Assembly (NCBI RefSeq): GCF_006345805.1
Contig: NC_042998.1
Span: forward strand, 129,022,001 to 129,086,000
Source of the DNA: Octopus sinensis
Lineage: Eukaryota
DNA: 64,000 nt
Reading direction: 5' to 3'
The notes beneath the pieces were generated by a model that was not told the origin of the DNA, did no database searches, and saw only the letters and a list, made by a program, of their open reading frames with translations. Shown here piece after piece: positions 10,416-58,879 of the stretch (within the stretch, counting starts at the first letter, position 1; every line of letters begins with the position of its first letter). The position numbers and the translations under genes are program-made.

Positions 10416-11627
10416 ACGTCCCTATATATAAATGTATGTATGTATATATATATATGCATGTATGTATATACATATTTGCGTATATATGTATATATAGAAA
10501 TGCATGTATATATATATATATATATATACAGAGAGAGAGAGGGAAGGGATGTAGAAAGAGGCCAACAAACGTACATATGTGTATATTTACATACACAAAT
10601 TCATATCTACTCTCTATCTTTCTATCTATATATACATATAGATTTGTGTGTGTGTGTGTGTTCGATATATAAGTGTATGTATATAAAACAGACAGACAGA
10701 AGGAGATGAAAGAGAGGTATAAAGGAGAGAGATAGAAAATTTGAATAAACACGCGAGGCAACAGATAGGTAAAAATAGACGAATAAAGAAAAAAAGAAAG
10801 AGAAAACAAAAAGAAATAAAATAGCATCGAATGAAAAATGCAAAAAAAATGTAATCAATGTGCAACTGAAAAAATAATATAGATCAGGAAAGTAAAAGTG
10901 TGTTTGATTGATGCAGCAATGAGTAAAGCGAAACACACCGATGTCAATATTCGTCAGGAAGGAATATCGCCTATGTAGTTTTCACGTGATGCTTTAGTCG
11001 AGTAGCCATGTTGATTGTTAGCTTAGTGGTTTGCTGAAGGGCATCATAGTAGATCTCTTATGTTCTTGTGTTCAGACTGGATAGGCTGTATCGAATCGAA
11101 TCTTCATTATCTATCTATCTATCTATCTCCATCTATCTATCTACCTATCCATCTGTGTATATATATTTGAATACATATATATTTGAATATATATATATAT
11201 ATATATATATATTGAATACATACATATATATATATATCTCCTCTCTCTCTCTCTTCCGTTGCTTCTCTTTCTTTTCTTTTCTCTCTTCTCTGTCACGTGA
11301 CTGCTGGCCGAAATCTGCCTTTCAGCTTCTGACCAGCGTCGTGTTAACATCGTTGTTTTTCGTCCGCCGCTATAGGCATCGCCGATAAGGCTCCTTTCCT
11401 TGCGCCAGAGAAATAATTTGTTTGCTTGTTATCAGTCGTAAGACACTTGTTGTTGTTTTCACCGTTAATGCTTCTGTATTTCATGTTTCTGTGTTCCATT
11501 ATTTTTTTGTTTTTTTATATTCGTCCCTTTTGCTGTCCTGGTGTCCGTATGCATTCGATCCTTCTTCCAGGAAATCTACGCTCCCAGCTTAGTTTTTCTA
11601 ATGCTCGCTGCTTAGTTTTTCTTGGAG

Positions 11628-11720
11628 GGCTGGCCGTGATCTAGTAATCTCAAGATTAATCAGCCGAAATTACTACGATGATCCGGTTCTTGACTGAAGA
11701 CTGAGGGTTTCGAATGTCCT
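11628..11720 (+). ncRNA. Putative hammerhead ribozyme with non-canonical strand order
   Basis: TAGTAA-TC-TCAAGA...CAGCC-GAAA-TTACTA...TCTTGA-CTGAAGA; stems I and III covary with the homolog at 53261-53355. Confidence 0.65.
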
Positions 11721-11788
11721 GTCCGTGTTTATTGTATCGTCTTCTAAGAGTTATACGTTCTTGTCCATGTTGTATTTTTCTACATACC

Positions 11789-11849
<61 letters not shown>

Positions 11850-18759: not shown

Positions 18760-18801
18760 GCTACAGACGCGTTTCGGGGTATTGCTCCTTTTCAATGCAG
18801 C
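18760..18801 (-). ncRNA. Minimal type I hammerhead (U3-A8 core), copy with a stem II mismatch
   Basis: Reverse complement GCTGCA-TTGAAAA-GGAG-caata-CCCC-GAAA-CGCG-TC-TGTAGC. Confidence 0.75.
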
Positions 18802-19000
18802 GTAGCCAGACCAGTAGGTGTCGCTTCTGACAATCTCTGTTCGAAGGTTTTATTTACCTAGCTTCGGTGTTCTCTTTTAGAGAGACTTAGTAATTTTAAT
18901 ATTTCTATTATTGAAAACAAGTAGATGTATTCCACCGAAGCTAGGTAAATAAAACCTTCGAACAGAGATTGTCAGAAGCGACACCTACTGGTCTGGCTAC

Positions 19001-19042
19001 GCTGCATTGAAAAGGGGCAATACCCCGAAACGCGTCTGTAGC
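19001..19042 (+). ncRNA. Minimal type I hammerhead ribozyme (U3-A8 core, palindromic stem III)
   Basis: GCTGCA-TTGAAAA-GGGG-caata-CCCC-GAAA-CGCG-TC-TGTAGC; predicted GUC cleavage after 19036. Confidence 0.82.
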
Positions 19043-52797: not shown

Positions 52798-53260
52798 ACG
52801 CACACGCACACACACACACACAATGAAACCATATGATTTGCAGCTGAATCTGTTCTTAAAGGTTGGCTTCAAAAGTTGCTTTCCTTCGCGTTCGTTACAC
52901 TACATTTATCATGTTAGTTTTGACTTTAGGAGTCCCATCTAGTGTGAGCCATTTATGTGTATTAATGCTCTTAATATAAATAAATATATTTAAAGGGAAT
53001 AACTATAATGTTTCCCTTTTTGAGGTTTTTCACGCTGACTACTTGATAAATTCTTTTAAAGATTTTAACCTCTTCTTAAATTATATATATATATAATACA
53101 TACATAGTACGTACATACATAAATATATACATACATACAAACACACACATATAAATATAAAAAATGGACAAAAACGCAATAGAAGGCAATAAAACATTTG
53201 GCCAGATATACGATACAAAGGTGGACAGGAGAAACAGCAGTTAGGACAGGCAAAAAAATA

Positions 53261-53355
53261 CGGGTCATTCGTCGCCTTCTTTCCTCAGTCAAGTACCAGA
53301 AGTCATAACTGTTTCGGGCAGTTACACTTGAGACAATTCGATCTGGTTGCTCCCA
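53261..53355 (-). ncRNA. Putative hammerhead with non-canonical strand order (homolog of 11628-11720)
   Basis: Minus strand: AATTG-TC-TCAAGTG...TGCCC-GAAA-CAGTT...TACTTGA-CTGAGGA. Confidence 0.65.
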
Positions 53356-54127
53356 ATATCTTATATACCACCGGTCATTGCTTGTGTTGATGTTCTTATA
53401 ATTTTAAGCGATATAAACAAGGATCAACAATTTTAAAACGAGAAGGGGTAAGTGAAATATAAACAAACAACAACCAGTGAATGTGTGAATATGTTTGTTG
53501 GCTTCTTTTCAGATCGAAAGTCTTGCAAAAACGAATTAAAATCGAAAAATACTTATATCTCTATGGCTAACCCTATTGAGATATCTCGCAATTCCTTTTG
53601 TGTCTCGGTTCCGATTCACCCATTACAGCGTTCTGAAATTAAGTTTTACGTTATATGTCTTCGATGCAGAGATCGATCTTTATATATTGAAACTGAAAAT
53701 CAGCCGCTTCGTCTTACCAATATAGAAAGCCTGAAACGATATTAAACCATTTTTTTTCAACTTCTAAGTAAAGACAAAGAATAAAGCGAAAAGAAAAAAG
53801 GAAATATAACGACATGAATCTGCTACGTTGTCAAAATCTACAATTATCTTAACAATATTTCCAACACTCTTCATTGGGAGTTAAAAGTTTTTATACTTAC
53901 AGATTTGTATAGCAATAATTTTAATAAGTTAAATTCATTCGCCCTGAATGAGCAAAATTAATTAATCATGCGAATGTGTGGGAAATTTACGCAGAAGGTT
54001 TAGTCTATAATATCAACCCTAGTACTTGATTGGTACTTTACTTTATGGAACTCTGTATGACCTTGGCGTGATTTTAACTGAGAATATAAAGGGCAGAAAC
54101 AAACTATCTTAAAACTTTGTCTGTAAT

Positions 54128-57955: not shown

Positions 57956-58709
57956 TTATAAATCTAATATTCTCCTATCCTTCCTTAACACCAGTTCCCA
58001 TATGCTGCTCATATCTGCACTCGGTCGGCTTAGGGGGTTGTTGTGTCCTAGCATATGTGCTGCTTCTTTTAGCTTTCGTATTTTCCAGTGGTGTTCTCTG
58101 TCTATTATTTTAACTTCATCCCACTGGGAGAGGTGGTCTCCATTTTTCCATACATATTCAGCTAAACCCGATTTATCAATATCTCCCCGTGTCACAGCTT
58201 TGCGATGTTACTCTATCCTTATTTTGAGGGGGCGGTATGTTTCGCCTTTGTATTCATAATTGGAGTGGAGTGTATGCTTTTGGGGTAGTTGTTGCTTAAT
58301 AGATTTTTACTGAGCTTGATCATTTCTTCGTAGTGGGTATCACGATCACTACTTATGTTCACTTCTCGATGTTTTAGGCACTGAGAAATCCCTCTCTTTA
58401 CACTGTATGGATGGTGGGAGCTGAAGTTGAGGTATCGTCCAGTGAAGGTCGGCTTGCGGTATACGGATGTCCTGAATCCATACTTGGTGCGTGTTATTAA
58501 TATGTCCAGGAATGCTAGCTGATTGTCTTTTTCTTTTTCCATTGTGAACTGTATGGATGGCTTTATTGAGTTTACATGATCTAGCAGCACTTGGGTGGGG
58601 CCAGAGTATGAAGGTGTCATCAACATATCGCAGCCATAGGGTTGGTTTTAGTGGTGTTGATCCTAAAGCCAAATGCTCAAAGTAGTCCATGTATATGTTG
58701 GCTATTGTC
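57956..58709 (-). pseudogene. Penelope-like reverse transcriptase / GIY-YIG endonuclease, frameshifted and internally deleted
   Basis: ORF-track pieces 58349-58690, 58219-58626 and 57956-58195. Confidence 0.88.
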
Positions 58710-58879
58710 GATATATATCAGTGTCCATACCGAAGTAGGTATTTTGTTTTATCATGATGTTGTGCATTGGTTTGACGTGTCTCGTTTATTATATGGTTTT
58801 AAATACATTTAAAAAAAAATAAAAGAGAGGTAGATCGCGACTAGAACATCTTTGACAATACAATATCTCTTACTAATAA

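Follow-up and report, generated by a model that had tools for sequence, protein, structure and literature searches.

How can a hammerhead ribozyme whose conserved parts stand in a permuted order complete its stem II? This question is raised by a stretch of 64,000 nucleotides of the Octopus sinensis genome (contig NC_042998.1, positions 129,022,001 to 129,086,000; hereafter the window), in which two short elements, one at 11.6 kb on the plus strand (copy A) and one at 53 kb on the minus strand (copy B), carry hammerhead motifs in the order cleavage site, GAAA, CUGANGA. Our analysis suggests that the 53-kb site is very probably a truncated copy of a high-copy non-coding retroelement with a likely hammerhead of non-circular order, in which one strand of stem II lies upstream of the cut.

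A generic S-G-C descriptor (stem III-UH-stem I ... GAAA-stem III ... stem I-CUGANGA; block letters as defined by Eckert et al. 2023, PMC10085705) finds exactly two sites in the window, the 11.6-kb and the 53-kb copies. The rate in 60 dinucleotide shuffles is 0.017 per window, and it falls to zero once the stems must be as long as in the two copies. Counted over the 2.7-Gb genome, the family core pattern has 5,225 exact matches versus zero for the reversed control, and a stricter pattern for the B-like subset has 189.

For the analysis of the fold, 55 copies picked for diversity were aligned, excluding duplicates, most near-identical copies of subfamily A1 and most upstream-truncated copies. 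In a structure of 43 pairs, 89.8% of the alignment cells pair, versus a mean of 83.5% in shuffles (0 of 500 as high, with the caveat that relatedness alone can beat shuffles) and 27-42% in slid controls. Double-sided changes occur in 20 of the 43 pairs, so the paired columns do not vary independently. The order of elements is P4a, P5 hairpin, IIa, bridge, III, UH, I, a short linker (about 1-5 nt between stems I and II), IIb, GAAA, III, bridge, I, CUGANGA and P4b, and the hammerhead core is present with CUGANGA, GAAA and UH including A15.1-U16.1. Paired cells amount to 98% in stem I, 93% in stem III and 82-93% in P4. The 5' strand of stem II sits 20 nt upstream of U16.1 and pairs in 91.3% of cells with four of five pairs double-changed (variants GGCUG/CAGCC, GGGCA/UGCCC, GGCCU/AGGCC, GGUCU/AGACC, GGCCG/CGGCC, GGCCA/UGGCC and GGACA/UGUCC); its first pair, G10.1-C11.1, is G-C in 53 of the 55 copies. 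Double changes are found in stems I, II and III alike. Stems I and II are connected at their far ends by a bridge helix (90% paired, three of five pairs double-changed). The strand that follows CUGANGA finds its partner 60-80 nt farther upstream, forming P4, and hairpin P5 stops just before G10.1. Support for P4 and P5 is weaker than for stems II and III, because changes within families A and B are mostly one-sided. Placed canonically after CUGANGA, stem II would pair in 26.2% of cells, which is the chance level (best slide 61%), and this placement was ruled out for A and B.

The same layout recurs in families with other stem sequences. A scan of the fetched loci gave 167 matches, 102 of them distinct; apart from A and B they include family D (1,928 candidates; stem II GAAGGA/UCCUUC), family E (two loci), families F and G (one locus each) and seven unclassified matches, one of which resembles chance and two of which are A variants. 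Stem II differs in sequence and is identical in register in A/G, B, D, E, F and Naiad, a Penelope-like element discussed below, and all families examined retain the catalytic residues and the NUH triplet. A 5-bp Watson-Crick partner upstream (P4) is likewise available in D and F to the strand that follows CUGANGA. The sequence-only reading had proposed that selection acted on RNA structure while the family was active, and this view is supported, more strongly by differently sequenced families keeping the same helices than by the shuffles; selection on active source elements appears to be the right reading. Among the 29 B copies the core is 2.9% diverged and the 3' tail 7.6%. This difference was not adopted as a sign of selection after insertion, since the copies mix subfamilies.

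The two window copies themselves were re-read directly. The minus-strand letters from 53355 to 53261 and those of the plus-strand copy agree with the sequence-only reading, as do the conserved UC, GAAA and CUGANGA, the three spacings (16/16, 23/24 and 11/11 nt), the common 3' words and the (TA)n ends. The 53-kb locus had been taken for a diverged second copy of the 11.6-kb element; the homology stands, but the loci are members of two subfamilies and not parent and daughter. Compared directly by blastn they match weakly (E 0.77), and homology is supported via intermediates, a common upstream segment and the family alignment. The listed pair changes in stems III and I hold with one correction: the change from A-T to G-U is a private mutation of the 53-kb copy, because 25 of 29 other family copies have C at 53336, and the family-level change is A-U to G-C. 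That reading mentioned neither the breach of the known block rule by stem II nor the tandem element of about 800 nt from which the fragment comes.

Copy B is a 5'-truncated member of subfamily B (53150-53356, minus strand, about 207 nt; family similarity 53355-53149) which ends in (TA)n-like sequence; 2,125 first-look candidates were found for it, and the best other copies, 29 in number, are 85-89% identical. By the family alignment and the descriptor, the stem II 5' strand (G10.1 side) lies at 53348-53353, upstream of the cleavage block, and the 5' bridge strand at 53342-53347, pairing with 53300-53295. Block S (53326-53338) holds a stem III strand, U16.1 (53333), C17 (53332) and a stem I strand, which places the predicted cut (GUC triplet) between 53332 and 53331, as had been proposed. 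Block G (53307-53320) comprises the stem II 3' strand, GAAA (53315-53312) and a stem III strand. The bridge 3' strand, a stem I strand and CUGAGGA (53288-53282) follow at 53282-53300 with no stem II strand after them, and the 3' strand of the clamp helix P4 is at 53266-53281, its 5' partner missing. The copy begins near 53356, about 23 nt ahead of the predicted cut, and A at 53351 (G in 14 and A in 10 other copies) makes an A-C mismatch or a one-base bulge in stem II. With P4a and P5 missing and stem II flawed, this copy is probably inactive.

Copy A (11241-11792, plus strand, about 550 nt, (TA)n flanks) is a 5'-truncated copy of the young subfamily A1, for which 1,951 candidates were found; all 39 other copies scored are 99.6% identical to it. 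Descriptor and constrained fold predict a complete ribozyme domain at 11552-11716, with the P4 5' strand at 11552-11564, hairpin P5 at 11565-11627, stem II strands at 11628-11633 and 11660-11665, U16.1 at 11648, a cut between 11649 and 11650 (AUC), GAAA at 11666-11669, CUGAAGA at 11694-11700 and the P4 3' strand at 11703-11716. In A1, the youngest subfamily (loci L032-L090), hairpin P5, upstream of stem II, contains a 22-nt internal duplication, and the hairpin is kept.

Both copies belong to a non-coding, tandem-forming retroelement that inserts in (TA)n. The 3' end of copies is a fixed point in (TA)n, about 90-130 nt past CUGANGA, and 5' truncation is of varying length. Most copies are 5'-truncated monomers and short tandems in (TA)n, and many loci are head-to-tail repeats with a spacing of 776-876 nt (about 1.35 kb at two loci). 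Four monomers examined are 67-70% pyrimidine, with 40-45% GC and a longest ATG frame of 59-121 amino acids. When identity was compared within and between loci, the tandem units of A1 proved near-identical, and several upstream units are truncated, a pattern compatible with a circular and with a read-through template alike. Locus L027 (1501-2065) carries three local 178-bp tandem units of family B, of which the second and third begin inside the ribozyme linker.

Cleavage after C17 would be expected to leave reverse transcripts that end at this bond or shortly 3' of it. The 5' ends of copies were tallied by eye among the first 100 matches of each search. Among the matches listed for family A, 43 distinct loci have (TA)4 at most 30 nt upstream of U1.1; 21 of them start at U1.1 and 22 are spread over -1 to -30. 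In the first 87 Mb of contig 1, again among the matches listed, 33 of 36 loci start at +1 to +14, three at +18 to +21 and none at -1 to -3, and just three loci start at -1 to -30. In the light of this downstream control, the apparent one-base peak at the cut (21 of 43 loci) is better regarded as a step. Family D shows a step as well, with 24 of 28 listed loci at +1 to +9 and four at -3 to -16. Against a uniform null the P values are 9e-14 (A) and 1.5e-9 (D); these ignore microhomology, which inflates +6 to +10. Microhomology alone does not explain the step, because ATC was used at one of 43 loci at -3 (in 393 Mb) versus nine of 36 at +10 (in 87 Mb). A structure-induced stall of the reverse transcriptase (RT) is a less likely cause, because an RT moving 3' to 5' would already have removed the partners of that strand. 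Seen in both families immediately 3' of the predicted cut, the step would be indirect evidence of cleavage in vivo, and there is good reason to expect that the family ribozyme cuts at this site with its upstream stem II.

Alternatively, the fold could be a binding or priming signal for a Penelope protein, with no cutting or with cutting in the protein-bound state only. The hammerhead of the Anolis Penelope cut only when protein was added and was dispensable for insertion in vitro (PMC11167929), which tempers any claim that cutting is required, and most long octopus copies read through the predicted cut site. We nevertheless consider this explanation unlikely: the catalytic residues and the NUH triplet are retained, the number of 5' ends rises at the predicted cut in two differently sequenced families, and protein-assisted cutting would still count as cutting by a ribozyme.

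Even less probable is an ordinary hammerhead of type SGC with a short, weak stem II after CUGANGA and the upstream pairing as an alternative, perhaps inhibitory fold. Block C was taken as uninterrupted by Eckert et al. (PMC10085705), and after a one-base insert D, E and F could form a weaker local stem of 3-4 pairs including G-U (10 of 21 D variants reach four). But the best local stem in A, B, G and Naiad has 0-2 pairs; in the A/B alignment local pairing is at chance and the upstream strand covaries, with an upstream stem of at least 5 bp in 33 of 41 A and 14 of 33 B variants and a local stem of at least four pairs in none of either (0/41 and 0/33); and in D and F the strand in question already has its P4 partner. 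Hardly worth retaining is the idea of a chance motif with pair changes from common ancestry only: Rfam reports no hammerhead (none among the 150 listed of 180 window matches, and in six family loci no match that reaches the gathering score), blastn hardly aligns A with B and related sequences can beat shuffles, but Rfam models cannot match a permuted order, so their silence is expected, and both the descriptor counts and the same helices in families with different stems and in published Naiads of three further phyla largely refute it.

How does the upstream-stem fold relate to known hammerheads? Eckert et al. validated SGC and CSG ribozymes, and their available text reports no non-circular type from the genome of a known organism, except one bacterial GCS candidate. 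With type SGC (HRIMA-1 and variants, PMC10085705) the octopus RNA shares the order of cleavage block, GAAA block and CUGANGA, the full catalytic core, the short linker between stems I and II and the helix joining their far ends. Unlike type SGC, the octopus RNA has a split block C, in which one bridge strand and the strand for stem II precede the cleavage block on its 5' side, and helices P4 and P5 would stand in for the link between A9 and G10.1. One can picture this RNA as an SGC ring in which all three linkers are closed and the opening lies within the core. It also occurs in thousands of copies in an animal genome, whereas type SGC is described from no genome of a known organism in that text. 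An intact block C, with the stem II strand directly after CUGANGA and at most 1-2 nt inserted, is not found, and for this reason the octopus RNA is not filed under type SGC although it is predicted to work like it. The predicted topology is outside the six proposed permutations. Within the partial coverage of the literature searched, where an earlier description is possible, neither a split-block-C form nor permuted hammerheads in Naiads are reported; the 2026 retrozyme preprint (bioRxiv 10.64898/2026.07.22.740005) searched type I motifs only, and the available text of a 2026 ribozyme survey does not mention octopus, Penelope or Naiad. The fold would accordingly be a new variant of the hammerhead, with a wiring absent from that literature.

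The sequence-only reading had also guessed at an association with Penelope elements, and the same architecture is indeed found at the 3' end of Naiad elements. Naiads are reported to lack canonical hammerheads and to prefer (TA)n (Craig et al. 2021, PMC8557442), some being marked only HHR_core or HHR_half_core. The last 300-380 nt of 53 published Naiad consensus sequences (supplement of PMC8557442) were judged by eye and with no control, and 14 of 53 carry non-circular hammerheads. Eight have the split form (Bfor, with a stem I of just 2 bp, Amil, Aacu, Anas, EuTe, Obim, Ovul, and Esco, with one stem II mismatch), and six nematode Naiads (Nbra 1-3, Hcon, Hpol and Asuum) have type CSG with intact block C and bridge helix. 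Ptep is uncertain, and in the other 38 neither form was recognised within the text shown. In the octopus genome the Naiad motif has 200 exact matches versus zero in the control, near-identical to the published ends, which agrees with a source in or near Octopus. Ten of 30 Naiad-RT loci (the query's own included) have a ribozyme region within 1.5 kb, in all ten downstream and on the same strand. Naiad is decayed here, with stops and 50-78% identity. Four short fragments were provisionally assigned to it on RT motifs and linkage; Pfam gives no RT match for them, and two exact peptide words taken from them are not in the available text of the published supplement. Like Naiad, the window elements target (TA)n, are truncated at the 5' end, form partial tandems and carry the ribozyme architecture close to their 3' end. 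Unlike Naiad they encode no protein, lacking its open reading frame with N-terminal GIY-YIG and C-terminal RT, and they show no blast-level similarity to the Naiad 3' end; Naiad RT remnants lie elsewhere in the genome. The ribozyme form likely descends from Naiad.

Two further observations concern Naiads. The CSG elements of Nbra, Hcon, Hpol and Asuum compare with two CSG sequences, both from metagenomes, known to Eckert et al. 2023 (PMC10085705). In bivalve, hemichordate and Clytia Naiads (CGi, Sglo, Olur, Tgra, Pmar, Skow, Pfla and 2_Chem) a conserved GCGGGUG ... GCUYACYC ... CACCUG stands at the place of the hammerhead, and it could be another structured RNA or ribozyme.

A second Penelope-like element, Neptune-like, has RT and C-terminal GIY-YIG in intact frames of 775-883 amino acids and ends in (TA)n. 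Because Naiad is decayed in this genome and the Neptune-like element intact, the latter is more likely the present driver of the young A1 subfamily. A ribozyme of its own was sought and rejected: 18 of 20 longer loci have no S-G-C match, and the matches at the other two are family D insertions beyond or at the element's 3' end. At one Neptune-like locus (L170, minus strand, about 6690) family D sequence is fused to the 3' end with no (TA)n between, possibly by template switch. Another (L178, minus strand) has in its 3' untranslated region several ATTGG plus TGATGACGTC repeats, resembling promoter units of a CCAAT box and a cAMP response element (CRE). An extra upstream frame of 279-479 amino acids, without a match in Pfam, overlaps that of the RT. 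The window itself holds a broken Penelope-like RT fragment (58258-58752, minus strand) in three pieces, 33-56% identical to the intact Neptune-like protein (E 2e-16).

Several observations weigh against an active split hammerhead carried on from Naiad. Besides the possible local stems of D, E and F, 5' ends pile up as a step instead of a one-base peak, highest at +6 to +10, where the pile-up coincides with TA microhomology. Unconstrained folding, in which pseudoknots are impossible, gives other core pairings, and under constraints P4 is recovered for the examples from A, B and F and missed for those from D, E, G and Naiad. No ribozyme lies within 1.5 kb of 20 of the 30 Naiad-RT loci. Activity may also be low or protein-dependent, because no precedent was found for breaking the A9-G10.1 link.

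How would such an element spread? P4 and P5 would hold A9 against the G10.1-C11.1 pair and so replace the backbone link, and transcripts of tandem copies would be cut to unit length. Monomers may then be joined into circles by analogy with animal retrozymes, in which RtcB ligase is far more efficient than self-ligation in vitro (PMC7229834). A Penelope-type RT/GIY-YIG protein would nick (TA)n and prime about 100 nt 3' of the ribozyme, by target-primed reverse transcription from an internal site such as was shown for the Anolis Penelope (PMC11167929). The many short copies that begin immediately 3' of the cut would derive from cut linear RNA, and the longer and tandem ones from a circle formed by re-joining or from a transcript left uncut; where a copy runs across the site twice or three times, its template must have been circular or uncut. 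The elements resemble non-LTR (long terminal repeat) retrozymes (Cervera and de la Pena 2020, PMC7229834; bioRxiv 10.64898/2026.07.22.740005), which are non-coding, low-GC head-to-tail repeats with one hammerhead per unit and probably mobilised by Penelope-like elements. Unlike these, the octopus units measure 776-876 nt instead of about 300, the ribozyme is of S-G-C order and not type I, and the copies, known here from genomic copies, are mostly truncated monomers and short tandems in (TA)n.

Elsewhere in the window, a long near-perfect inverted repeat (about 18785-19010, arms of about 60-65 bp) is probably a miniature inverted-repeat transposable element, with a sub-threshold match to MIR4208.

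What follows for hammerheads and for Naiad? On balance we favour, as a working model built from comparative sequence data, a seventh topology among natural hammerheads, with its opening between A9 and G10.1 and two additional helices as a clamp. It would be an active ribozyme in the genomes of animals as diverse as ctenophores, corals, crustaceans and cephalopods, and non-circular hammerheads, both the split form and CSG, would then be the missing ribozymes of many Naiads and drivers of a large unrecognised class of retrozymes of about 800 nt. If this is true, non-circular hammerheads, so far rare RNAs of metatranscriptomes, exist in thousands of copies in an animal genome, and the hammerhead core can accommodate a break excluded by the six-permutation scheme. 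The octopus genome offers several natural sequence variants of the split form. Since standard descriptors and Rfam miss this form, counts of animal ribozymes and retrozymes would be underestimates, and the published puzzle of how Naiads proliferate without a canonical hammerhead would be answered.
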